The notes below the pieces were generated by a model. It was not told where the DNA came from. It ran no database searches and worked only from the letters and a program-made list of their open reading frames with translations. A program made the translations under genes and the position numbers. Shown here in pieces: positions 24-10,266 of a stretch of 13,955 nt of DNA. The DNA is from a virus (taxonomy: Duplodnaviria > Heunggongvirae > Uroviricota > Caudoviricetes): IMG/VR virus record IMGVR_UViG_3300012275_000032, positions 1 to 13,955 of that record. The stretch is one strand, 5' to 3'. Within the stretch, counting starts at the first letter, position 1. Every line of letters begins with the position of its first letter.

Positions 24-248
24 TCATGCTGCACCTCCGAGATGCTTCATGTTTTTTCCGGAGCAAAAGGCTATAAGCGGCATACTGACGCGGTAATTAC
101 GGCCCAGCGGTTCACAAACCACCTTCTGACATTCACGGTCAACCAGGCTAACACGTAGAACATGCCCTGCAGGCGTGGTGTACCACTGACCCGGACGAGG
201 ACAACGGAAAGTCTGATTGGTAAAACGTTTGAAAATATTCCGGATCAT
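24..248 (-). CDS. Small hypothetical phage protein (74 aa)
   Basis: ORF whose ATG (246-248) overlaps the TGA stop (245-247) of the upstream ORF as ATGA, a typical translational-coupling junction. No family recognised. Confidence 0.4.
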   Translation of the reverse strand: MIRNIFKRFTNQTFRCPRPGQWYTTPAGHVLRVSLVDRECQKVVCEPLGRNYRVSMPLIAFCSGKNMKHLGGAA

Positions 249-1384
249 TTGCGCCCCCTTACCTCTGAAGGGTTCAGCGACAAATTTATGAGGCAGGCCA
301 GCGCCGAAGCATCATTAATATAATCATATAAGCTAACAGCCAGCGGAGATTCGGCTTTTGCCAACATAGGATAAAGCTGCTGCAGCCAGACCTGATGAAT
401 TGATGAAATGTAGGAACAGAGAACGCTGGCGTTATGTGCAACGTCGGGCTTTGAAAGCTGTTTCTCCATCTGGTTAAAGGCATTGATATATGCCTCTTTG
501 AACTGGGCAGCACGTTTACCCGTGAAACCCATAGCAAGAAACGCAAAACCGTCGCGTGTGATTTGGTAGCAAGGAAGTTTGCGACCTGTGCAATCAGTGT
601 AATCACTCACCGAAAAATTGCGGGCAGTGAATGATGCTGAGCATTCAAGCGTGCGGATCTTTTTCAGTACATCGTCATGACGTTTGGAGAAGAAGTTGGC
701 AACAGCCAGGGATGAAGTAACAGCCTGACCATCAACGATGGCAATTTCAGGTTGAGTGAGGGTTGGGATCGTAGCCATGATGGCAGCCTCTTTGGTGATT
801 TTTAATAACTCACCACCAAGGCTTTCCACGACCTTATTGGTGGTGAGACGTACAGGGGTGGAAATACCGGTCACCAAAGAACCCGGCCCAACCGAAGTTG
901 GCCCTGCACGCCCCACCATAATTTGGGCGTAATGCTGCTCATGACACAAAAAAACCGCAAGAGCGCGGTTGTGCGCTTTGGTGAATTCCGGGTTTCCACG
1001 CCCGGCACCCGTTTTATAAGGTGCCTGAACAGTGTAACGTCCCGGAATGGCAGAATCAATGTGTTGGTGGTCCGTCACACTCAACAAAATCACGCCTGAA
1101 TTTCCACAAAGGACTAAAGCACTCATGCGGGTAGTCTTTGCGAAGATAGATAACGCGCTGTGTTTCTGGTTCCCAACGAATAACATGAACATAAAGCCCT
1201 CTTCCGTCACGAAACCAGCGGTTAAGTTCCTGCACAACTCGCCCCCCACAGTCAGGTAAAGTTCTCTGTGGTTACTTACAGCCAGGTGATTTGGTAATCT
1301 GCATTCATGCCGTAACAACAGGTGTTCAGAGACGCTGACCACCAGCTGTTGCGACAAACGGTTATTTGCCGTTAAACTGTTCAT
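245..1384 (-). CDS. Phage regulatory protein with Rha-family motif in its C-terminal half; N-terminal 200 aa of uncertain validity (alternative start at 778 gives a 177-aa Rha-like protein)
   Basis: Motif TSSLAVANFFSKRHDDVLKKIRTL resembles the Rha (phage regulatory protein) signature as recalled. An internal ATG at 776-778 is preceded by AAAGAGG at good spacing. The ORF ATG at 1382-1384 overlaps the stop of the upstream CII-like gene (ATGA). The N-terminal part has unusual composition (very few Asp, many His/Cys). Confidence 0.45.
   Translation of the reverse strand: MNSLTANNRLSQQLVVSVSEHLLLRHECRLPNHLAVSNHRELYLTVGGELCRNLTAGFVTEEGFMFMLFVGNQKHSALSIFAKTTRMSALVLCGNSGVILLSVTDHQHIDSAIPGRYTVQAPYKTGAGRGNPEFTKAHNRALAVFLCHEQHYAQIMVGRAGPTSVGPGSLVTGISTPVRLTTNKVVESLGGELLKITKEAAIMATIPTLTQPEIAIVDGQAVTSSLAVANFFSKRHDDVLKKIRTLECSASFTARNFSVSDYTDCTGRKLPCYQITRDGFAFLAMGFTGKRAAQFKEAYINAFNQMEKQLSKPDVAHNASVLCSYISSIHQVWLQQLYPMLAKAESPLAVSLYDYINDASALACLINLSLNPSEVRGRK
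948..975 (-). terminator. Possible weak intrinsic terminator on the minus strand, inside the long ORF
   Basis: Minus-strand hairpin AACCGC-GCTCTT-GCGGTT (plus-strand 953-970) followed by a run of 5 T (plus-strand A-run 948-952). The stem is only 6 bp. Confidence 0.25.
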
Positions 1385-1932
1385 GCGTTAGTTTCTCCAC
1401 AGACACAAAACGCCACGACGCCCGGAGCTGCACACTCGCGGGCGTCACTCTTTTCTGGAGCGCAGAAAATTTTGTAGACCAGTGCCGCATGCTCCTGGAG
1501 CTTCGAAATTGAGAGGTACAGCTCGTCGTTAATTGCTGTCTTCTCATGCGGTTCCACTACACCGTCTTCAATTGCTGAACGAATCTGTTTTGAATAACTG
1601 CCGATCTGTTCAATGACCTCCAGCAGGCGTTGGTTGATATCGGCGTTGTCCACATCCTCGACATCAGGAAGAGACACAAAGACGCCATTTGCAGACTGCG
1701 CCACAGCGTCAGCAATGAAGTGAGTTCCACCAGCACGTTGCAAAATCATTGCCCATCCCAGCGGGAAAATCTGATCGCCATCGGCACGAAGGCGGTTAAA
1801 TAATGCGTTCTCTGTTACATCCAGCCAGTCAGCAGCTTCAGCGTACCCCCCAGGCAACGCTGCGATAGTTTTTCTGACAGCTTTCACGTACCACTCAGGC
1901 TGTTTTTCTACTTTCCAGTGATGCTTACCCAC
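1381..1932 (-). CDS. CII-like phage regulatory protein (183 aa), second gene of the cro-side operon
   Basis: Sits immediately downstream of the cro-like gene with an 8-nt overlap. Size and position match CII-type lysogeny regulators of lambdoid prophages. The family call is from memory, not a search. Confidence 0.5.
   Translation of the reverse strand: MGKHHWKVEKQPEWYVKAVRKTIAALPGGYAEAADWLDVTENALFNRLRADGDQIFPLGWAMILQRAGGTHFIADAVAQSANGVFVSLPDVEDVDNADINQRLLEVIEQIGSYSKQIRSAIEDGVVEPHEKTAINDELYLSISKLQEHAALVYKIFCAPEKSDARECAAPGVVAFCVCGETNA
1417..1456 (+). terminator. Plus-strand hairpin plus T-rich tail antisense to the 3' end of the CII-like gene (OOP-like terminator candidate)
   Basis: Perfect 8-bp stem GACGCCCG (1417-1424) / CGGGCGTC (1439-1446) with a 14-nt loop, followed by ACTCTTTTCT. 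A candidate promoter TTGCGA (1349-1354) with an 18-bp spacer to TAACTG-like TAAACT (1373-1378) lies upstream. Confidence 0.35.
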
Positions 1933-2185
1933 GGTTCACCTCCTGTTCCTGTGGTTTAAACCCATTCTGGTTTTGGCTAGATTGAAAACGTGCCGGATAA
2001 AGAATCTGCATTTCGCTGACTTCACCCTTAAAAAAATTGGCTAAACGTTCTGCAAGCTCGATAGATGGAATCTGCTCCAGCCTCTCAATACGACTCAACG
2101 TCGCTGGATTGACTTGAACACCCGCAGCAACATGCTGCAAAGTGAAACCATGCGCCTTACGCACATTTCGTAATGGTGATTGCAT
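1925..2185 (-). CDS. Cro-like HTH (XRE-family) transcriptional regulator (86 aa)
   Basis: Small ORF divergent from the CI-like repressor. HTH-like segment GFTLQHVAAGVQVNPATLSRIER. GGAGGG Shine-Dalgarno 6-11 nt upstream of the ATG (plus-strand 2191-2196). Confidence 0.7.
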   Translation of the reverse strand: MQSPLRNVRKAHGFTLQHVAAGVQVNPATLSRIERLEQIPSIELAERLANFFKGEVSEMQILYPARFQSSQNQNGFKPQEQEVNRG

Positions 2186-2282: not shown

Positions 2283-2975
2283 ATGAACATAGGAAACCGA
2301 GTCAGACAACTTCGCCAAGCGAAGAACATGAAAATCGCCGATCTCGCTGAAGCGATAGGAGTAGATGCGGCGAACATCTCGCGCTTAGAAACGGGTAAGC
2401 AAAAACAATTTACCGAACAAACACTGAGTAATATTGCCAAGAGCTTAGGTGTTGATATTGCTGATCTCTTTACCTCTGCCCACAAAAGTAATACTGTATA
2501 TAAAAACAGTAATAATGAGGATGTTGCGCAGGTGAAGGATGTGTTCCGTATTGAAATGCTGGATATCAGTGCCAGTGCGGGAAATGGCCTTATCCAGGGC
2601 GGTGATGTCATTGATGTGATTCATGCCATCGAATACAGAACTGATAATGCTGTATCAATGTTCGGCGGACGACCAGCCAATCACATCAAAGTTATCAACG
2701 TTCGTGGGGACAGTATGTGTCCAACCATTGAGCCAGGAGATCTCATCTTCGTTGATGTCAGCATCAATCAGTTTGATGGTGATGGTATATATGTCTTTGG
2801 TTTTGATGACAAAATATACGTTAAAAGACTTCAAATGATTCCTGACAAACTGCTGGTGATTTCTGATAACCAGATTTACCGTGAATGGGGAATTACTAGC
2901 GAAAACGAACACCGATTCATGGTCTTTGGAAAGGTCTTAATCAGTCAGTCGCAAACCCTTAAGAGACATAATTAA
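2283..2975 (+). CDS. CI-like phage repressor, N-terminal HTH plus C-terminal S24 (LexA-like) peptidase domain (230 aa)
   Basis: N-terminal HTH (RVRQLRQAKNMKIADLAEAIGVDAANISRLETGK). C-terminal GDSMCPTIEPGDLIFVD (catalytic Ser) and IYVKRLQ (Lys), the Ser-Lys dyad pattern of self-cleaving repressors. Divergent from the cro-like gene. Confidence 0.85.
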   Translation: MNIGNRVRQLRQAKNMKIADLAEAIGVDAANISRLETGKQKQFTEQTLSNIAKSLGVDIADLFTSAHKSNTVYKNSNNEDVAQVKDVFRIEMLDISASAGNGLIQGGDVIDVIHAIEYRTDNAVSMFGGRPANHIKVINVRGDSMCPTIEPGDLIFVDVSINQFDGDGIYVFGFDDKIYVKRLQMIPDKLLVISDNQIYREWGITSENEHRFMVFGKVLISQSQTLKRHN

Positions 2976-2994: not shown

Positions 2995-3017
2995 GGCCAC
3001 CGAAAGGTGGCTTTTTA
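2995..3017 (+). terminator. Intrinsic terminator downstream of the cI-like gene
   Basis: Stem GGCCACC (2995-3001), loop GAAA, stem GGTGGC (3006-3011), then TTTTTATT. Confidence 0.6.
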
Positions 3018-3029
3018 TTACCTATAAAT

Positions 3030-3080
3030 TTGCATATCTCGCAAATATCACTTGCATATCTCGCAATTTAATTTTATCTT
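3030..3080 (+). promoter_or_regulatory. Tandem 15-bp direct repeat overlapping a sigma70-like promoter (OL/pL-like candidate)
   Basis: TTGCATATCTCGCAA at 3030-3044 and again at 3052-3066. Promoter candidate: -35 TTGCAT (3052-3057), 17-bp spacer, -10 TATCTT (3075-3080). The TTGC...GCAA half-sites resemble the OR-region half-sites. Confidence 0.45.
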
Positions 3081-3273
3081 TTGTTCCAGACCAACTACAG
3101 GATTACAACAAAATCTGGTTGCAACACGGTGCATGTGTCGTAAGCAGTCAGTAAATGTCAAAAACGAACAGGCAGGACGCCCACGAAGTAGCCGCCTGGG
3201 GCATATGAAGTCCAGGATGATTCGTTGAGTCATGTTGTGCCACTAGGCACTCATGTTAAAGCAGGTGTATGAA

Positions 3274-3549
3274 ATGAAAGTCCAGATTTTAAACAATAAC
3301 TGTGAAGTCGTTTGGTCATACGACATAGCCGCCCCTGTAGATCAGAGCGGCGATAGCTGGACCAATGGGAAACATCAGATTATGGCTGGAGTTGTGTTCT
3401 CTTTACGCCGTGCTTTGGAACAGGCTGAAGTATTTCCATCAGACCCTGAATGGAAATGGCCTTTTTCTATTTGTCCAAATTCGGAGAGCACATTTCAGAA
3501 AATTGGTCAGAAAGTCGCACTCGAAGAGCATCAGCCAACTGTTTCCTGA
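3274..3549 (+). CDS. Hypothetical protein (91 aa from the ATG at 3274; the ORF track starts it at 3253)
   Basis: AGGTG about 7 nt upstream of the ATG at 3274. No recognisable family. Overlaps the convergent ORF 3467-3712 by 83 bp, so one of the two may be spurious. Confidence 0.3.
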   Translation: MKVQILNNNCEVVWSYDIAAPVDQSGDSWTNGKHQIMAGVVFSLRRALEQAEVFPSDPEWKWPFSICPNSESTFQKIGQKVALEEHQPTVS

Positions 3550-3712
3550 TTTTTTCAGGTAACTCGTCGGCATCGCAGAAACAACAACGCTCGATCATGT
3601 TGAAAGCCGATTCGTAGAACTGTTTTTGCTGAGTGTCGCTGAGACAGGAAAAGAGCGACGTTACGATGATTTTATTAATTGCATTATCAAGTTCTTTTTC
3701 ATCAAAAGTCAT
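3467..3712 (-). CDS. Hypothetical protein (81 aa), possible moron gene
   Basis: Good Shine-Dalgarno (AAGGAA) about 8 nt upstream of the ATG at 3710-3712. Helical-looking sequence with a CCFC motif. No family recognised. Confidence 0.4.
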   Translation of the reverse strand: MTFDEKELDNAINKIIVTSLFSCLSDTQQKQFYESAFNMIERCCFCDADELPEKIRKQLADALRVRLSDQFSEMCSPNLDK

Positions 3713-3779
3713 TTGATTTTCCTTTTATGTATACGGGCTTAAAAGGATACCACCGAGCCTGAAGTGGTAAAAAGACAGG

Positions 3780-4140
3780 CACATAACAGCTAAGTATTTT
3801 CAACCAGAGAGAATCCTTAGCGTTGTGGTGAATGCGGCTCAGCGCACGCGGGTTAAGGTTGAGGCTGACAGTCGACCTTCTGTGGATACCCACCCGCCTG
3901 GTGTGCAACCTTCGCCAGGCACCGGGAGGCACCCGGCACCACAACTTTATGCTGTGTGTAGTCCTGGTGGTACCAGTTTGTACCCTTGCTTCCGGCTGGT
4001 ACCGTCCTTTTTACAAAACAGAGAAGAGCATCACCGGACGACGGGCTCATAACCCAATCCATCCGGGCGGCTGCCACCGCAGGTGTTCTTCTCTGTTTTG
4101 TGGAGAAACCAACCGACCTTGCAGGGTCGATATGATGAGG
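3780..4140. other. GC-rich non-coding stretch with dense secondary-structure potential; candidate structured RNA or cis-acting site
   Basis: An 18-bp inverted repeat, 4013-4030 against 4084-4101 (17 Watson-Crick pairs plus one G-U), encloses 53 nt. Further stems: GCCTGG/CCAGGC (3896-3901/3915-3920), CCGGG/CCCGG (3922-3926/3932-3936), TGGTACCA palindrome around 3967-3974. All ORFs here look junk-like and overlap on both strands. Confidence 0.4.
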
Positions 4141-4149
4141 AGCAGCAAA

Positions 4150-4439
4150 ATGGCTAGCGAACGCAGTACTGATGTGCAGGCATTTATCGGGGAGCTGGAC
4201 GGCGGCGTATTTGAAACCAAAATCGGCGCAGTTCTCAGTGAAGTCGCTTCCGGTGTGATGAACACGAAAACCAAAGGGAAGGTCTCACTNNNNNNNNNNA
4301 AATTTCTGAAGAAGACACCACCGAAACGCCGATGTATGTCAATCGCGGTGGTCGCCTGACTATTCTGCAGGAAGACCAGGGACAATTACTGACTCTTGCC
4401 GGTGAACCTGACGGAAAACTCCGCGCAGCAGGTCATTAA
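4150..4439 (+). CDS. Hypothetical phage protein interrupted by an assembly gap
   Basis: GAGGAG 7 nt upstream of the ATG at 4150. Protein-like sequence MASERSTDVQAFIGELDGGVFETKIGAVLSEVASGV before the gap, and after the gap (in a different frame) ISEEDTTETPMYVNRGGRLTILQEDQGQLLTLAGEPDGKLRAAGH ending at TAA 4437-4439. Confidence 0.4.
4290..4299. other. Run of 10 N (assembly or masking gap) inside a coding region
   Basis: Literal n characters. The frame before and after differs, so the true gap length is not 10. Confidence 0.95.
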
Positions 4440-4504: not shown

Positions 4505-5329
4505 ATGTCTCAGAACTTAGACGCAACCGCAATTAATCAAATCCATGCCCTTATTTCTGCTCAGGGTGTTAATGAAATTATCAGTAAGATTGGTGCCGAT
4601 GCTGTGGCATTGCCTGAGAATTTCCGCATTCATGATCTGGAAAAATTTAATTTAAATCGTTTCCGTTTCCGTGGTGCGCTTTCCACTGCCAGCATCGATG
4701 ACTTTACCCGTTATTCTAAAGATCTTGCAGATGAAGGCACCCGCTGCTTTATCGATGCCGATAATATGCGTGCCGTCAGTGTGCTTAACCTGGGTACTAT
4801 TGATGAACCAGGTCACGCCGATAACACCGCCACTCTCAAACTGAAAAAGACAGCACCGTTCTCTGCTCTGTTGTCTGTTAATGGCGAGCGTAATTCCCAG
4901 AAGTCACTGGCAGAATGGATTGAAGACTGGGCAGACTACCTTGTGGGCTTTGATGCTAATGGTGACGCTATTCAGGCAACAAAAGCGGCTGCGGCTGTCC
5001 GTAAAATCACGATTGAAGAAAACCAGACCGCTGATTTTGAAGATAATGACTTCAGCGGCAAACGCTCCCTGATGGAGTCTGTCGAAGCGAAGACCAAAGA
5101 CATTATGCCAGTGGCATTTGAATTTAAATGCGTTCCGTTTGAAGGCCTGAAAGAACGTCCGTTTAAATTACGCCTCAGCATTATCACTGGCGATCGTCCT
5201 GTACTGGTTCTGCGCATTATTCAGCTGGAAGCGGTGCAGGAAGATATGGCTAACGAATTTCGTGATCTGCTTGTTGAGAAATTCAAAGACAGCAAAGTAG
5301 AAACCTTTATTGGTACTTTCACCGCCTGA
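4505..5329 (+). CDS. YfdQ-like protein (DUF2303 family), 274 aa
   Basis: Clean ORF with GTGAGGA Shine-Dalgarno. Length and gene neighbourhood match the yfdQ-yfdR-yfdS-yfdT block of the K-12 CPS-53/KpLE1 prophage as I recall it. Not confirmed by search. Confidence 0.65.
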
Positions 5330-5456
5330 TTTCATTACTGCAAATGCCCCTGCGGGGGCATTTATGGAAACGTAATTAACTCAATAATCACCGGATGGTG
5401 AGGGCTTCATTTTACCAGAATTCAGCGTGGTGCAGCACATATACGTGGAGAACAAA

Positions 5457-6613: not shown

Positions 6614-6820
6614 ATGCTGAACCTCGATTGTGTTCCAATCTCAACTTATTGCAAAGAAACTGGCGAAACTCCTGAAGCAATAAACAAACGTGTACAGCGC
6701 GGTGTTTGGCGTGAAGGTGTTCAGGTTTTAAAGGTTGAAGGCGTTAAGGAGAGGTGGATTGATCTTAGTGAGGTTGCAAAATGGGCCAGACAAAACTGCT
6801 CAAACTACCGCGCGGCGTAA
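6614..6820 (+). CDS. Excisionase-like protein (Xis), 68 aa from the ATG at 6614 (the ORF track begins at GTG 6602)
   Basis: Small basic protein immediately upstream of the integrase and overlapping it by 40 nt, the classic xis-int arrangement. GGAG (6604-6607) about 6 nt upstream of the ATG at 6614. Confidence 0.55.
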   Translation: MLNLDCVPISTYCKETGETPEAINKRVQRGVWREGVQVLKVEGVKERWIDLSEVAKWARQNCSNYRAA

Positions 6821-7977
6821 CAATCAGGAAACACCGCCAGGGCGAAACGATCAATATAACTTTCACCTACAAAGGAGTTAGATGTCGTGAGCCTCTTTCC
6901 AATCTGGAAGTAACACCAAAGAACATTAAATACGCCGAGCGCACACTCGGCGAAATTCATAATAAGATCGAAAGGGGAACATTCATTTATGCGGAATATT
7001 TTCCCCGTTCTGCTCGTTTGAAAATTTTTGGTAATGCTGCTGCAGGCAAAACGGTAAAAATGTACCTGGACGAATACCTTGAAATCTGCGAAACGAGAAA
7101 ACTTTCACCATCTACGATTGGTGGTTATAAAAAATGCCGTAGTGCGTTAGCCTCACTCCACATTTGCCCTGCAAGTGAATTAACACCAGCAATCCTGAAA
7201 GCGTGGATTCAAAGCCAAAAAACGACCTTAAAAACCATTCGCAACCAGTTATCTTTCCTGCGGTCAGCACTTGATGAAGCCGTAACCGATGGGGTACTTC
7301 AAATTAATCCCGTATCGTTAGTAACTGCTTCGCGCTACCAAAGTGATAAGTCAGAAGCAGAAAGCAGCTACGTGGTTGATCCGCTATCACCAGCAGAAGT
7401 TGATGCATTACTAGCAGCAGCCGGAAACAAACAATGGGAGAATCTGTTCCGGTTTGCTATACATACGGGCCTGCGTAGTTCTGAATTATGTGCCCTTCGA
7501 TGGCGTGATATCGACTTTGTTGGAAAAACTGCCCATGTCCAGAGCGCAAGTGTTGTCGGTGTTATCAAAGGAACAAAGACAAAAGCCGGTACTCGTAAAG
7601 TTGAACTGACAGAAGAGGCAATGTTGGCGCTGATAAACCAGAAGCCATTTACATTCATGAAGGATGCTACTGTCTTTGAAGATCCAAAGACCAATAAGCC
7701 TTGGGCAAGTGCTGATGCAATCAGGAAAAAAGCATGGGTGCCAACATTGCGAAAAGCAGGTATTCGTTACAGAAACCCATATCAAACCAGGCATACATTC
7801 GCCACCAGCCATATCAGCCGAGGAGCAAACCTGTTTTGGCTTGCAGCTCAAATGGGGCATAAAGGGCCGGAAATGCTTTTCAGGCATTATGGTTCGTATC
7901 TCGTAGACTATGATGGCAAGACAGCTTGTAAGGACCAAGTATCAAAAAATCCGGAGAACATGAAAATTGAGAAGTAA
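6781..7977 (+). CDS. Tyrosine site-specific integrase (lambda family, with N-terminal arm-binding domain), 398 aa
   Basis: N-terminus LPRGVTIRKH...FTYKGVRCREPL resembles the arm-binding (DUF3596-type) domain. Catalytic motifs present: TGLRSSEL (Arg), KTKAG (Lys), RHTFATSH (His-x-x-Arg), GH...FRHYGSY (His, Tyr). GAGG Shine-Dalgarno upstream. Confidence 0.9.
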   Translation: MGQTKLLKLPRGVTIRKHRQGETINITFTYKGVRCREPLSNLEVTPKNIKYAERTLGEIHNKIERGTFIYAEYFPRSARLKIFGNAAAGKTVKMYLDEYLEICETRKLSPSTIGGYKKCRSALASLHICPASELTPAILKAWIQSQKTTLKTIRNQLSFLRSALDEAVTDGVLQINPVSLVTASRYQSDKSEAESSYVVDPLSPAEVDALLAAAGNKQWENLFRFAIHTGLRSSELCALRWRDIDFVGKTAHVQSASVVGVIKGTKTKAGTRKVELTEEAMLALINQKPFTFMKDATVFEDPKTNKPWASADAIRKKAWVPTLRKAGIRYRNPYQTRHTFATSHISRGANLFWLAAQMGHKGPEMLFRHYGSYLVDYDGKTACKDQVSKNPENMKIEK

Positions 7978-8167: not shown

Positions 8168-9433
8168 ATGTTGATTGAGTTTACAGTACAAAACTATAAA
8201 TCTATTTCAGAGAAACAAACACTGAGTTTAGTTGCATCAAAACTTAACGATTTGCCTAATAATCTGTTCAGTATTGATGAACCTAAATCTCTTGAATTGC
8301 TTAAAAGTGCTGTGATTTATGGCCCTAATGCTGCCGGAAAATCAAACATTATTAACGCTATTACAACTATGGCTGAACTTATTGTCCGGTCTGCTACAGG
8401 TTATAAAAGTGGTGATAAACTTGATATCACGCCTTTTAGACTAGACTCAAAGAAGATTAATCAACCATCTGAATTTGAAATTAACTTTATTTCCGAAGGC
8501 ATCAGATACCAGTATGGTTTTTCTGCAACAGAAGATTTTATTCACGACGAATGGTTATTTGCATTCCCCAAAGGCAGACCACAAAAATGGTTTTTACGTC
8601 TATGGGATGAAGAAAAACAAACCCATGAATGGGAGTTGGGGCCATCGTTGACAGGAGAAAAACAAACATGGTTGAAATCAACTAGGCCTAATGCGCTCTT
8701 TCTTTCTACAGCGGTACAATTAAACAGTGTACAACTAAAACCTGTATACGATTGGTTTTATTACAAAGTTAAATTTACTGAATTAACAGGTTGGGATAGT
8801 GATTACAGTGCAAAGCAATGCTTAAATGATAAGAAAGATGAGATTCTCAATTTTTTAAAAGCTGCCGATGTAGGTATTGATGACATTCATGTAACAAAAG
8901 AAAAATTCAATCCCAATGCTCTTCCTGATGATATGCCTGCAGCCATCAAGGAACTAGTGATTAAGAATATGCAAGGCAAGGAAGAATATGTCATTAAAAC
9001 ACTTCATAATAATGAGGATGGAGAGCCAATTCCATTCGATTTAAAAGATGAATCGCATGGAACTAGAAAAATCTTTAGTTTCGCGGGTCCCTTATCACAT
9101 TCACTCGAGACAGGAAACATCCTGTTTATTGATGAATTAAATGATAACTTACACCCCAAATTAGTTGAGTTTATTGTAGGTTTGTTTCACGATAAAAATA
9201 TCAATAAGAATGGTGCCCAGTTAATCTTTACAACTCATGAGACGTCTATTTTAAATCAAGATGTTTTCAGACGAGATCAGATTTGGTTTGTAGAAAAAGA
9301 CAATTCAAAGCAAACAAATCTTTTCCCACTTACGGATTTTAGTCCAAGAAAAGGAAGGGAGAATTTAGAAGCTTCTTATCTTGACGGTAGATATGGGGCT
9401 TTACCACTCATTGGGAAATGGGAGAGATATTAA
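8168..9433 (+). CDS. ABC/AAA_21-type ATPase of a two-gene defence module (AbiLi / AriA / OLD-N-terminal-like), 421 aa
   Basis: Walker A GPNAAGKS (nt 8321-8344), Walker B ILFIDELNDNLHP, H-loop-like IFTTHE. AT-rich codon usage. Stop TAA (9431-9433) overlaps the partner ATG. Confidence 0.85.
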   Translation: MLIEFTVQNYKSISEKQTLSLVASKLNDLPNNLFSIDEPKSLELLKSAVIYGPNAAGKSNIINAITTMAELIVRSATGYKSGDKLDITPFRLDSKKINQPSEFEINFISEGIRYQYGFSATEDFIHDEWLFAFPKGRPQKWFLRLWDEEKQTHEWELGPSLTGEKQTWLKSTRPNALFLSTAVQLNSVQLKPVYDWFYYKVKFTELTGWDSDYSAKQCLNDKKDEILNFLKAADVGIDDIHVTKEKFNPNALPDDMPAAIKELVIKNMQGKEEYVIKTLHNNEDGEPIPFDLKDESHGTRKIFSFAGPLSHSLETGNILFIDELNDNLHPKLVEFIVGLFHDKNINKNGAQLIFTTHETSILNQDVFRRDQIWFVEKDNSKQTNLFPLTDFSPRKGRENLEASYLDGRYGALPLIGKWERY

Positions 9434-10119
9434 TGGGAAGCGAAGATCTGTTCAAAAAAAGAAAGGCTCGGCGTAATAATGAATTCAAACGAGTTAGTAA
9501 AGCACGAGCTCAAATGAAGAAAATTCTTATCGTCTGTGAGGGAGAGAAGACTGAGCCCGCATATTTTACAGATTTTATAAAACATTGCCGTATAAGCACG
9601 GCAAGCATAGTTGAGATTTCTGGAGAGTGCGGCTCAAGCCCTATGAATGTGGTATCTTGGGCAAAAGAAAAATATAATACGGAAAAAAAAAGGAGCGACC
9701 CTTATGATAAGGTTTATTGTGTCTTTGATAGAGACGCTCACCCTAACTATGATGAAGCTCTTAGCAGGATTAATTCCTTAAATCCAAAAGGGATTTTTGT
9801 TGCTATAACTTCCATACCATGTTTCGAGTACTGGCTGATACTACATTTTGGATACACCCGAAAATCATTTTCACCTCAGAAAGGCAAAAGTGAAGGCGCA
9901 CAAATGCTAGCTGAGTTAAAAAAATACATGCCAGATTATGAGAAAAAGGCATCAGGTGTATTTAATAAATTGCAAGATCGGCTCGATACGGCATTAATCA
10001 ATGCTAAAAGAGTCGAAGATGCCGCCAAAAAAGACGGTTCGATAAATCCTTCAACTAAAGTTGGCGCTTTGATTACAGATCTAATTAACATTCGTGATGA
10101 CTTTGAAAATGAGAAGTAA
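9433..10119 (+). CDS. RloB-like / Toprim-like partner protein (AbiLii-like), 228 aa from the ATG at 9433 (the ORF track begins at 9418)
   Basis: TAATG stop-start overlap with the ATPase gene and GGGAG Shine-Dalgarno (9419-9425). Basic N-terminal tail, then ILIVCEGEKTEPAYF (Toprim Glu, nt about 9526-9570) and a downstream FDRDAH (DxD) motif, the RloB-family signature as recalled. Confidence 0.8.
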   Translation: MGSEDLFKKRKARRNNEFKRVSKARAQMKKILIVCEGEKTEPAYFTDFIKHCRISTASIVEISGECGSSPMNVVSWAKEKYNTEKKRSDPYDKVYCVFDRDAHPNYDEALSRINSLNPKGIFVAITSIPCFEYWLILHFGYTRKSFSPQKGKSEGAQMLAELKKYMPDYEKKASGVFNKLQDRLDTALINAKRVEDAAKKDGSINPSTKVGALITDLINIRDDFENEK

Positions 10120-10244
10120 AAATAACATGTCATGATGTAGCGACGGCAGCATGTTTAAGTTCAAATGGCAAAGTGTACGCGAAGTATACGCGGATCAAAA
10201 ACAATAGAAAAAACGTATATTTTACAAAAGATTATATAAATTTT

Positions 10245-10266
10245 GACGCGGGTTCAACTCCCGCCA
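10245..10266 (+). other. Partial copy of the tmRNA (ssrA) 3' end: prophage/island att core (attR-like boundary)
   Basis: GACGCGGGTTCAACTCCCGCCAGC matches the T-arm and 3' acceptor strand of E. coli tmRNA (recalled as ...GGACGCGGGTTCAACTCCCGCCAGCTCCACCA). It then diverges (CCCCAATCA), and no tmRNA body lies upstream. Confidence 0.7.

Follow-up and report, generated by a model that had tools for sequence, protein, structure and literature searches.

What occupies the stretch at 3780-4140 of this prophage, between its repressor gene and yfdP? In the window, by which we mean the whole 13,955-nt stretch of DNA analysed and to which all positions refer, the original prediction had described a single GC-rich, structured non-coding element of some 360 bp, and had offered a put- or nut-like RNA, a structured 5′ UTR, a recombination site or an sRNA as its identity. 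We found that the stretch is a non-coding RNA leader in the early-left (PL) operon of an SfV/mEp460/ST64B-type prophage, and that it is not one element but two independent, portable + strand modules split by a terminator: module A, which together with the terminator T we read as an sRNA gene, and module B, which we read as a structure of read-through transcripts. With the roles proposed below, we put this reading at a probability of roughly 0.55; of the earlier suggestions, the sRNA fits the first half and the structured 5′ UTR the second.

The early-left position stood up well. Immediately past the terminator of the repressor gene are two operators whose half-sites equal those at OR, in an arrangement shared with mEp460, together with what is probably a PL-like promoter, and yfdP...int lie downstream (Table 1). 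The order repressor, leader, A, T, B, yfdP is matched in mEp460 by PL, leader, A2 (a variant of module A), T, B and yfdP, with no + strand genes annotated in between, and the region was matched in 2,881 of 5,426 complete E. coli genomes. The CPS-53 prophage of K-12 has the leader deleted, leaving just the last ~20 nt upstream of yfdP, and was therefore rejected as a data source. GC richness (0.57-0.59 against about 0.40-0.45 in the flanks) and structure were both borne out; the + strand of 3780-4150 folds at -157.3 kcal/mol with z = -5.96 against dinucleotide shuffles, compared with z = -3.94 for the - strand. Two details of the original prediction did not hold: the next gene, placed roughly 50 nt away, is yfdP, which starts at 4150, 9 nt past the end of the region, and the N-run taken as a sign of assembly trouble (4291-4300) lies inside yfdP, where it stands for 83 bases present in the identical genome NZ_CP184839. 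Other leaders also have a GC hairpin at the position of hairpin H, with a different sequence.

Table 1. Features of the leader and its surroundings, in window positions
Feature	Position	Strand	Basis or remark
Intrinsic terminator after the cI-type repressor gene (2283-2975)	2995-3012	+	GGCCACC-GAAA-GGTGGC and T-run; also annotated in SfV
OL/PL: operators TTGCATATCTCGCAA twice (3030-3044, 3052-3066) and candidate promoter TTGCAT-17-TATCTT (3052-3080), rightward	3030-3080	+	Sequence reading
Predicted ~190-nt sRNA (module A and terminator T), sRNA-17 frame with STnc100-type core	3822-4012	+	RF02076 match; sRNA-17 RACE ends
P1 5′ strand GUUGUGGUG, pairing with CACCACAAC (3937-3945)	3822-3830	+	Fold, family alignment
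P2 hairpin GCGGC-UCAGC-GC[A]CGC, 5 bp, bulged A 3846, UNNGC loop	3834-3849	+	Family alignment
Pseudoknot strand AAGGUUG, partner CAACCUU (3906-3912) in the P4 loop	3855-3861	+	Covariation
P4 hairpin CCUGGUG / CGCCAGG, loop holding the pseudoknot strand	3897-3919	+	Fold, family alignment, covariation
Family signature CACCGGGAGGCACCCGGCACCA, 22 nt; P5 CCGGG-AGGCA-CCCGG stacked on the P1 3′ strand	3920-3941	+	Equals Rfam consensus
T: hairpin GGUGGUACCAG...CUGGUACCGUCC, then UUUUU (4008-4012); intrinsic terminator / sRNA 3′ end	3966-4012	+	Fold, -17.9 kcal/mol
Module B three-way junction: outer stem 4008-4032/4082-4106, P2 arm 4034-4066, P3 hairpin 4067-4080	4008-4106	+	Fold, covariation, same topology in four types
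CGGGCUCAUAACCC: 14 nt identical to the E. coli initiator tRNA anticodon stem-loop (metZ positions 29-42)	4042-4055	+	Local alignment score reached by none of 2000 shuffles
Conserved GGAGAAAC past the outer stem; Shine-Dalgarno-like, pairs with the T U-tract, no start codon behind	4102-4109	+	Conserved across genera
Small hairpin H, CGACC-UUGCAG-GGUCG	4114-4129	+	Between module B and the yfdP RBS
yfdP RBS GAGGAG (4137-4142) and ATG (4150-4152)	4137-4152	+	First gene downstream of the leader

Module A resembles a known RNA family. The STnc100 model, RF02076, matched 3792-4014 over its whole length (model positions 1-206) with 41.3 bits, short of the gathering score of 47 (E-value 1.5e-7 in a 601-nt search and 3.4e-6 window-wide). 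The region had no Rfam match at gathering thresholds, and at E up to 10 this one stood alone apart from noise (ftsZ-DE, mir-214, hairpin ribozyme); folding and an Rfam scan, two of the checks named in the original prediction, gave a strong fold and a sub-threshold match. The landmarks of the STnc100 core are nevertheless in place, namely UGGUGAAU at 3826-3833, a P2 hairpin maintained through compensatory changes and an exact CACCGGGAGGCACCCGGCACCA closing on P1, and the 3′ hairpin with U5 is present as well. At least 119 viral contigs carry the 22-nt signature, and those loci score 57-165 bits on RF02076. Judged by its sequence, the core of module A is a divergent STnc100 of the STnc100/EcOnc27/PasD kind, whose P2 and variable region place it in a divergent subgroup, as in loci L013 and L010, which are also sub-threshold. 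Like STnc100 (RF02076, including EcOnc27/sRNA103 downstream of stx2B, with PasD1/2 as proposed relatives), module A lies in a prophage, co-oriented with the phage operon; unlike STnc100, which usually occurs in the late region after Q, stx or tRNAs, it sits in the early-left leader, and its terminator loop is a further difference. EDL933 has eleven STnc100-family copies, one of them northern-confirmed, and the relatives EcOnc27 and PasD are Hfq-bound. PasB was considered as a name for the element and rejected, since PasB is located among structural genes.

The fold of module A, a pseudoknotted domain of ~124 nt, is preserved by compensatory changes across the family. P1 alternates between A-U and G-C pairs among members, its strand being identical in variants A1, A2 and A3, and by our reading of the alignment the P2 consensus CCCCC-UGUGC-GG[A]GGG changes by G-C flips in the window copy and to U-A pairs in locus L010. 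Taken from the same sequence, the pseudoknot strands form on average 6.6 contiguous pairs, compared with 4.4 when they come from unrelated members, and the family has >15 different complementary, covarying pairs; in the fold of the window copy, AAGGUUG could instead pair locally with GACCUU (3874-3879). We found no mention of this pseudoknot in the papers examined. Such a conserved pseudoknotted fold is odd for an ordinary base-pairing sRNA and hints at another role for module A. The stem of T covaries too (GCGGUACCAG, GCGGCGCCAG, GCGGCAUC and others), and the palindromes noted earlier are present, the two GGTACC copies proving to be opposite arms of this single hairpin (3966-3976/3996-4007) and GTCGAC falling within the variable part of module A. 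How efficiently T terminates is uncertain, because its loop is large (19 nt) and 2 nt separate the stem from the U-run.

Module A and module B do not always travel together. The exact module-A signature lies 121-122 nt upstream of 49 of the 123 module-B copies; the remainder have the alternative domains A2 or A3, or no domain, within the same P1/T frame. As far as the sequences go, this shows one slot, with a constant closing helix and terminator, that hosts interchangeable pseudoknotted domains.

A sister allele in this slot has been mapped experimentally. sRNA-17 of E. coli K1 RS218, from an mEp460-type prophage, measures 193 nt by 5′/3′ RACE and northern blot, and its deletion raises yfdP by log2 6.6 and also raises yfdR (Sun et al. 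2020, PMC7719688). In the supplement of that paper its sequence starts GTTGTGGTGAATGCGCAGGC and finishes CTGGTACCGCTCTTTT (PMC7719688). Like A+T of the window, it lies in the repressor-yfdP intergenic region of the same prophage type and is followed by module B and then yfdP, and the two share a frame consisting of the 5′ end GUUGUGGUGAAU, a linker and the 3′ hairpin GGUACCAG..CUGGUACC with its U-run. Window P1 with its flank is identical to sRNA-17 at 18 of 19 positions and the terminator region aligns with few changes; the 5′ RACE end falls at the homologous GUUGUGGUG and the 3′ RACE end in the homologous U-tract. The bodies, in contrast, are not homologous: the ~110-nt interior of sRNA-17 is variant A2, without an Rfam match, whereas that of the window is A1, STnc100-type and unrelated in sequence. 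Alleles like that of the window appear in the same paper solely as ‘degenerative sRNA-17’ (PMC7719688).

Because its core is STnc100-like and its frame matches the RACE-mapped sRNA-17, we consider it very probable that A+T is a terminated sRNA and that its terminator gates the yfdP-int operon; a discrete RNA with these ends, and de-repression of yfdP upon deletion, have been established by others for the sister allele. The ArcA control reported for sRNA-17 should not be presumed for the window copy, because the upstream sequence differs. A promoter scan of the window gave no sigma-70 match directly upstream of 3822, where the best candidate (AAGACA-17-TATTTT, 8/12 matches) is not convincing, and transcription of this copy in the lysogen is accordingly no more than a possibility. 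Gating of the operon by the terminator would also suggest that the yfdP and yfdR ‘targets’ reported for sRNA-17 are cis effects, and the resistance cassette inserted in the mutant, instead of loss of the terminator, could be the cause of the yfdP de-repression.

Module B is built on the inverted repeat that drew attention to the region. The 18-bp repeat at 4013-4030 / 4084-4101 is real: its arms are complementary except at one of the 18 positions, which is a G.U pair on the + strand. An inverted-repeat search extended the arms to 4013-4037/4077-4101, and no other local inverted repeat in the window is as long, just two more reaching 14 nt. In RNA it is part of a 25-bp helix, 4008-4032 with 4082-4106, which includes five G.U pairs on the + strand and in which the U-tract of T (4008-4012) pairs with GGAGA (4102-4106). 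This helix closes a junction whose topology is the same in four module-B sequence types, while the P3 loop varies in length by 1, 2, 7, 8 and more nt. Pair cells were 98.3% paired against about 50% in slid controls, and five pairs (13 cells) were changed on both sides, which 0-1 of 500 shuffles matched; these counts cover types 1 and 2, the other types being compared by reading and separate folds, and were restricted in this way because a joint MAFFT alignment left the outer stems 1-2 columns out of register. Covariation across homologous prophages, for which the original prediction had asked an analysis, was found in both modules, with compensatory changes in module B in prophages of at least 15 enterobacterial genera; its core is present in 24 species-representative genomes of Enterobacterales. 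A covariance model of module B, run on 96 module-A loci, found no further copies except a weak, divergent one in L070. No Rfam family matched module B, and it is a widely conserved three-way junction that is undescribed in Rfam or in the papers searched. Amid surrounding helices that all covary, 23 nt, ACGGGCUCAUAAYCCAAUCCAUC, are invariant across genera.

From these parts we propose that transcripts of module A+T stopping at T would give a roughly 190-nt sRNA, that T would silence yfdP-yfdQ-yfdR...xis-int in the lysogen, and that in lytic growth transcription from PL would have to pass T. Module B would fold solely in read-through transcripts, in which the U-tract of T and the conserved GGAGA would pair and so lengthen the repeat to the 25-bp duplex, closing the three-way junction and leaving its long arm to expose an exact copy of the initiator-tRNA anticodon stem-loop. 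From the modelled fold we infer that module B is a read-through-specific processing (RNase III-type) or stability element; at 25 bp, including the five G.U pairs, the stem has the length of double-stranded RNA that RNase III needs (about two turns). Processing of the duplex might split the sRNA part from the yfdP mRNA and free or stabilise the conserved core. The logic would be that of the RNase III hairpins of lambda sib and the N leader, where a long duplex in the PL transcript is formed only past a terminator. The window duplex likewise needs read-through of a terminator and lies just upstream of the RBS of the first gene; there is, however, no sequence relation, and a three-way junction with a tRNA-like arm is absent from the lambda sites, and cleavage here is conjectural. 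Klebsiella-type relatives have an outer stem of just 6 bp, which rules out RNase III cleavage as the conserved function of the core. Nor does this explanation, our best one, account for the strict conservation of the 23 nt, which counts against it.

The leader follows OL/PL and precedes terminators and a long operon that runs to int, a position that would also suit processive antitermination, in which module A or the whole leader binds RNA polymerase and makes it resist T and later terminators, either unaided, as HK022 put does, or together with a phage protein, as nut does with N. HK022 put is likewise a cis RNA after the early promoter (PMC9378689), and no N-like protein was recognised among those annotated or scanned window ORFs that were examined. 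The domains of the A slot are swapped between phages within a constant frame, as boxB specificity types are, their fold is complex and pseudoknotted, and STnc100 copies also occur in the other antitermination-dependent operon, the late one, after Q, stx or methylase. Against this, blastn at word size 7 against HK022 27.5-30.1 kb (PL/PR, put) gave chance matches only, and put consists of two stem-loops of about 70 nt, whereas module A is a larger pseudoknotted domain that behaves as an sRNA gene. No boxA (CGCTCTTA / TGCTCTTTAACA) within one mismatch was found in 3087-4150. Family members pile up in lysogens as terminated RNAs of ~160-210 nt, the copy at locus L070 has its own consensus promoter and a strong terminator, as befits a stand-alone sRNA gene, and the leaders of loci L128 and L190 are without any module A. 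The put- and nut-like identities first suggested are not supported, and we regard antitermination by the leader as unlikely. The mEp021 Gp17/nut system, from a different phage group, was set aside.

The tip of the long arm of module B raises a second possibility, that the core acts in trans as a mimic of initiator tRNA. The 14 nt identical to metZ (14/14) form a hairpin tip with the three G-C pairs and the CUCAUAA loop of the initiator anticodon arm, its ‘anticodon’ CAU at 4048-4050. This arm, lying inside the repeat, was overlooked in the original prediction. An excised core might be a decoy or competitor for the binders of the tRNA-fMet anticodon arm, conceivable targets being an anticodon nuclease of the VapC type, the 30S P site/IF3 and MetRS; RNase III could excise it from the long-stem leaders, and tRNA-processing enzymes from the tRNA arrays. 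In Klebsiella phages the module-B core is the final unit of tRNA arrays downstream of Q, placed about 6 nt past the preceding CCA, with an acceptor-like stem of 6-7 bp and an RCCA end; the core thereby has two distinct ‘excision’ settings, and the invariance of the 23 nt likewise speaks for a mimic. As a tRNA, however, module B is rejected by the programs: ARAGORN (tRNA/tmRNA) found no tRNA in the whole window, and even with the E limit set at 10 the Rfam tRNA model had no match in the region, type-3 relatives being missed by tRNA finders too. Unlike a tRNA it lacks a D arm and a T-loop motif, its ‘anticodon’ arm is extended and interrupted by an internal loop, its P3 is variable, and the window copy has a 25-bp stem and no CCA. 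The divergent relative in L070 has GGC/GCC with the loop CUCAUUG in place of GGG/CCC with CUCAUAA, ST64B has CUCAUUA, and the identity could be a leftover of an inherited phage tRNA gene. We therefore hold the mimic to be improbable, whether as a decoy that shields tRNA-fMet from the VapC-type anticodon nucleases found in the SfV and ST64B hosts Shigella and Salmonella, or as a competitor at the 30S P site. Equally doubtful is a joint reading that takes module B for a novel, trans-acting class of phage RNA and the RNAs of the STnc100/sRNA-17 slot for structured effectors, although for the slot itself the conserved pseudoknotted folds may mean just that, structured effector RNAs and not simple base-pairing regulators.

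The layout of module A followed by T, with its highly conserved pseudoknotted core, could further be read as an aptamer that governs formation of T and hence entry into the yfdP operon, the ‘sRNA’ being a terminated leader. Several RNAs first catalogued as sRNAs have turned out to be terminated riboswitch leaders. By our reading of the alignment, however, no conserved antiterminator pairing joins P1 or P2 with T, different members have terminators of unrelated sequence, the genes downstream are mixed (esterase, holin, yfdP), and family copies occur in tandem arrays of up to five. The terminators of some late-region copies do resemble P2 (GCCCCUCUCCGGAGGGGC), and because this resemblance is not conserved we ranked a riboswitch-like attenuator low, as a very unlikely explanation.

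A decayed protein-coding gene is barely credible. In the identical E. coli genome PGAP calls a pseudogene (‘frameshifted hypothetical protein’) at 3825-4135, a 49-aa ORF at 3986-4135 matches PHROG 33599, an annotated-ORF family without assigned function, and two frames are stop-free across module B in most variants, so the earlier statement that the region has no credible ORF needs qualifying. Coding-type conservation, which the original prediction had named as its refutation, was looked for in homologues and not found: they share no conserved frame, indel lengths do not keep to multiples of three, as the P3 loop of module B shows, and the two conserved blocks of module A lie at 25 different distances from each other without 3-nt periodicity (mod 3 = 41/38/26). 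Helix changes are compensatory, the translations are unlike real proteins and have no Pfam match, phage annotators put ORFs on either strand or omit them, and in the sister allele an sRNA has been mapped by experiment. A site that works as DNA (for recombination, as an origin or as a palindrome bound by protein) is as remote, despite the long inverted repeat, the mosaic-boundary position and the GGGCATTTATGGAA motif that recurs at module junctions, for the five G.U pairs of the outer stem are strand-specific, being A.C mismatches on the opposite strand, the + strand folds better than the - strand, helices are kept while their sequences change, and the junction has non-palindromic conserved loops.

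If the leader is, as we prefer, a terminated sRNA gene followed by a structure of read-through transcripts, its first half ties together three literatures that had not previously been connected, those on STnc100/EcOnc27/PasD, on sRNA-17 of neonatal-meningitis E. coli and on the PL leader of SfV/mEp460/ST64B, and it predicts that the terminator of the sRNA gates the operon from yfdP to int. Module B is widespread in Enterobacterales prophages, in two settings, early leaders and tRNA arrays. Were its targets initiation factors, ribosomes or anticodon nucleases, module B would represent a new phage-host interface; were it a mere processing signal, its recognition would still clear thousands of E. 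coli genomes of a spurious ORF or pseudogene call that keeps recurring.

The region 3822-4106 is a non-coding RNA of the + strand, made up of two separable, mobile modules: A+T, a putative sRNA with an STnc100-type core (A) and a terminator hairpin with its U-tract (T), and B, which begins within the end of T. The structured element of the original prediction is real, and its structure is richer than was supposed. Its inverted repeat is the longest local one in the window and reaches 25 bp as RNA; the + strand of 3780-4150 folds with a z of -5.96 versus shuffles, the - strand more weakly (z -3.94). Coding-type conservation was sought in homologues and not found: the spacing between the two conserved blocks of module A takes 25 lengths without three-base periodicity, and the variation that exists in the modules consists of compensatory changes in helices, which effectively excludes a decayed gene; module B loops carry indels of 1, 2, 7, 8 and more nt. 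PGAP annotates 3825-4135 as a frameshifted pseudogene, and phage annotations of the region are inconsistent, with ORFs on the + or - strand or none. An ORF listed by an ORF finder at 3832-4359 is an artefact that spans the nearby Ns. These had been taken as a hint of difficult assembly, a reading that does not hold, as they only mask bases of yfdP; NZ_CP184839, which is identical otherwise, has the whole gene. A DNA site is also effectively excluded.

The prophage that makes up the window is of the SfV / mEp460 / ST64B / CPS-53 type and comes from E. coli. The repressor gene, operators and PL-like promoter lie to the left of the element and yfdP through to the integrase gene to its right, which puts it in the early-left operon's leader. 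Behind the cro-like gene are ymfL, which is CII-like, and a Rha/Ash gene; the + strand continues rightward with yfdP, yfdQ (DUF2303), yfdR, others and then the integrase gene. A 501-nt query (3700-4200) found matches in 2,881 of 5,426 complete E. coli genomes, in the SfV, SfII, SfIV, mEp460, cdtI and Stx2c phages, and in ST64B at 77% identity.

Features of the window
Feature	Position	Strand	Remark
ORF annotated Rha/Ash regulatory protein	245-1384	-	
C4 antisense RNA	836-923	-	strong Rfam match, 83.6 bits
isrK	948-1024	-	strong Rfam match, 67.9 bits
c4-a1b1 target	985-1037		weak Rfam match
cro-like gene	1925-2185	-	faces repressor gene
cI-type repressor gene	2283-2975	+	HTH + peptidase S24
Terminator of repressor gene	2995-3012		
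Operator TTGCATATCTCGCAA, two copies, and PL-like promoter	3030-3080		after repressor terminator
Conserved post-PL stretch	3088-3135		~45 nt
ORF	3253-3549	+	full-length match to PHROG 3195, unknown function
ORF	3467-3712	-	full-length match to PHROG 3311, unknown function
Hairpin	3712-3742		rho-independent terminator in SfV annotation
Hairpin (ACCACCGAGCCUGAAGUGGU)	3748-3769		scans as - strand terminator
Module A+T	3822-4012	+	
Module B outer stem	4008-4032 / 4082-4106	+	from fold; core is the inverted repeat 4013-4030/4084-4101
Module B P2 arm	4034-4066		preceded by one A; 5-bp base, internal loops, GGG/CCC stem, CUCAUAA cap
Module B P3	4067-4080		short hairpin GCGG-CUGCCA-CCGC; one further A closes junction
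yfdP	ATG 4150	+	
N-run	4291-4300		inside yfdP, stands for 83 nt
GGGGCATTTATGGAA(A/C)	5329-5376		after yfdQ
Integrase gene	6781-7977	+	
AAA_21 (AbiEii-like ATPase) and RloB-like genes	8168-10119	+	
tmRNA-model match	9945-10265	+	weak, 23.4 bits, E 3.6e-6
Host csiD/lhgO	from 10956		

Several further features surround the element. The conserved stretch following the PL-like promoter (CCAGACC..ACAA..GGUUG.AACACGG) is common to the window and mEp460 (comparison locus L231, 3045-3320), beyond which the two diverge, and could be a promoter-proximal RNA signal. An insert of ~500 nt between PL and the sRNA slot, absent from mEp460, carries two ORFs of opposite strand that have 83 nt in common; the + strand ORF is the one retained by PGAP and in SfV, mEp460 annotators picked - strand ORFs, and likely no more than one is real. 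Directly 5' of the element stand two hairpins, the second of which is kept before the leader in several genera. The motif GGGGCATTTATGGAA(A/C) recurs at module junctions in other phages (loci L004, L126 and others), directly 3' of module B in loci without yfdP-yfdQ and 5' of A2/A3 slots (alternative domains, described below), and looks like a mosaic boundary sequence. The C4, isrK and c4-a1b1 matches all fall within the Rha/Ash ORF, so that either part of this long ORF is miscalled or it contains a P1/P7-type immI RNA switch; the C4 and isrK pair is also found in ST64B and in loci L126, L175 and L053. The AAA_21 and RloB-like genes, placed between the integrase gene and host csiD/lhgO, resemble a defence island of two genes at the end of the prophage. 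The tmRNA-model match, where ARAGORN finds no tmRNA, overlaps the end of the RloB-like ORF and may be an att remnant derived from ssrA, or a chance match; locus L128 has a comparable partial match.

Module B is a conserved three-way junction bearing an initiator-tRNA anticodon arm. Across 26 distinct long-stem sequences, pairing holds in 98.3% of cells and both sides have changed at five pairs (13 cells), a count that 0-1 of 500 shuffles reached; when the partners were slid as a control, pairing fell to ~50%. The G.U pairs lie on the + strand. Other types rebuild the helices from different sequences: the outer stem occurs as ACGCAACACACGAGAGCA/UGCUCUCCUGUGUUGUGU and many more variants in other genera, the P2 base as CCGGA/UCCGG, CCGGG/CCCGG, CCAGG/CCUGG, CCUGAUG/CAUCAGG or CUGACGG/CCGUCAG, and P3 ranges from 14 to ~40 nt. 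Separate MFE folds gave the same junction in seven of nine representatives. A stretch of 23 nt, ACGGGCUCAUAAYCCAAUCCAUC, is essentially invariant, and 14 of these (4042-4055) match positions 29-42 of E. coli initiator tRNA exactly, covering the anticodon stem-loop including its three G-C pairs. We found the core in 24 species-representative genomes, with hosts including Escherichia, Shigella, Citrobacter, Enterobacter, Kosakonia, Leclercia, Phytobacter, Mixta, Erwinia, Pantoea, Raoultella and Klebsiella; an enterobacterial-type leader with module B in a 'Chryseobacterium sp.' assembly (L239) is probably contamination or a mislabelled contig. The motif is absent from Rfam, ARAGORN does not recognise it, and literature searches gave no description.

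The core occurs in two settings. In leaders it lies directly 3' of T, whose U-tract is taken into the outer stem and paired with a conserved GGAGA(A); this resembles a Shine-Dalgarno sequence, yet no start codon follows. Next come a small GC hairpin and the RBS of the first gene, which is yfdP at most loci and another gene at some. Klebsiella-type phages have the core as the final unit of an array of one to four tRNAs (Asn, Phe, Thr, Met, Arg) 3' of Q, where it starts ~6 nt past the preceding CCA and its acceptor-like stem of 6 bp leads into ACCA or GCCA. Both kinds are present in one phage (L203), and a more distant relative in locus L070 (GGCCUCA/UGAGGCC, then GCCA) lies ~100 nt 5' of an STnc100 gene. 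This late region of L070 (120-480) reads terminator, divergent CCA-ended module-B-like RNA, consensus promoter, STnc100, terminator; both modules therefore co-occur there too, in the order opposite to that of the window.

Module A+T, whose core is of the STnc100 type, is one allele of an sRNA locus that has been mapped by experiment. The Rfam scan proposed with the original prediction left module B unrecognised and, when relaxed, matched module A to STnc100 (RF02076) over the full length of the model at 41.3 bits, below the gathering score of 47; L010 and L013, divergent variants resembling the window's, are likewise below threshold. A 22-nt signature, CACCGGGAGGCACCCGGCACCA, is exact in the window, and a scan of viral contigs found it at no fewer than 119 loci (105 distinct variants); sampled loci scored 57-165 bits on RF02076, with many in tandem and many adjoining phage tRNA arrays. 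An alignment of 34 representatives gave the fold: P1, (A/G)UGGUG...CACCA(U/C); an AAU linker; P2, a 5-bp stem with a single bulged nucleotide and the loop UNNGC; then a variable insert, P4, an invariant P5 (CCGGG-AGGCA-CCCGG), a linker and the terminator. The C-G pairs of P2 are swapped to G-C in the window and U-A in L010. The segment directly 3' of P2 pairs with the P4 loop in a pseudoknot, built from more than 15 different complementary sequences among family members, with a mean of 6.6 contiguous pairs within a sequence versus 4.4 between unrelated members. The window's version joins AAGGUUG (3855-3861) to CAACCUU (3906-3912), with an alternative partner nearby. The literature on the family, as searched, makes no mention of this pseudoknot.

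The known STnc100 RNAs are sRNAs of prophages: of the eleven copies in EDL933, most are transcribed and one is northern-confirmed; EcOnc27/sRNA103, 3' of stx2B, is Hfq-bound; and PasD is a proposed relative. Among the loci surveyed, copies usually have genes for Q-like proteins, a DNA methylase or Stx2B on the 5' side and for the NanS-p esterase or a holin on the 3' side, and about one-third precede yfdP/yfdQ. The L070 copy, with a near-consensus promoter (TTGACG-17-TACATT) a few bases 5' of P1 and a strong terminator, is an autonomous gene. Tandem arrays occur at L011 (2265-3380, the maximum of five copies), L035 (811-1488), L018, L049, L069, L074 and L121, often at a spacing of 484 nt and commonly directly after phage tRNA arrays.

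Other prophages hold different domains within the same frame of their T-B-yfdP leaders. A2 (GUUGUGGUGAAUGCGCAGGCUGAUGCGCG...CCGGAGAUCAGCACCGGUCACCACAAC) and A3, which match no Rfam family, have the identical P1 as their closing helix and the same terminator after it, and two leaders have no A-slot domain. A2 is identical to sRNA-17 of the E. coli K1 strain RS218, a 193-nt RNA of a mEp460-type prophage, visible on northern blots and with ends determined by 5' and 3' RACE, that begins GTTGTGGTGAATGCGCAGGC and ends CTGGTACCGCTCTTTT (PMC7719688 and its supplement); in mEp460 it spans 3324-3516, again 193 nt. The window shares its start (18/19 with flank) and its terminator, so a homologous RNA would run from 3822 to ~4012. 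We sought a good promoter directly 5' of 3822 and found none in the window; transcription of the RNA may start at PL, ~730 nt upstream, or at a weak promoter. When a resistance cassette took the place of sRNA-17, yfdP rose 95-fold and yfdR rose too, and the authors read both as sRNA-17 targets (PMC7719688). Given the map of the locus, a cis effect, through terminator loss or cassette read-through, is more economical, and the rise in yfdP lends support, short of proof, to T as a gate of the operon.

In the lysogen, T would halt most transcription to yield the sRNA, and transcription from PL would have to get past T to reach yfdP...int. Because half its base is the U-tract plus sequence beyond, the 25-bp duplex would form only in read-through RNA, the same logic as lambda sib. 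It is a plausible RNase III substrate, and cutting it would divide mRNA from sRNA and leave the core free or more stable. Processing by RNase III is not available to the relatives with a short stem and a CCA end, which suggests that the conserved job of the core lies in its tRNA-like arm. We rank lower a put- or nut-like antiterminator, one of the options originally proposed, module B as a trans-acting mimic of initiator tRNA, and a riboswitch-type attenuator.

Being a variant of known things, STnc100 and sRNA-17, the A+T half of the leader is the less surprising one; the half that the original prediction singled out, module B, is a conserved RNA motif new to Rfam.
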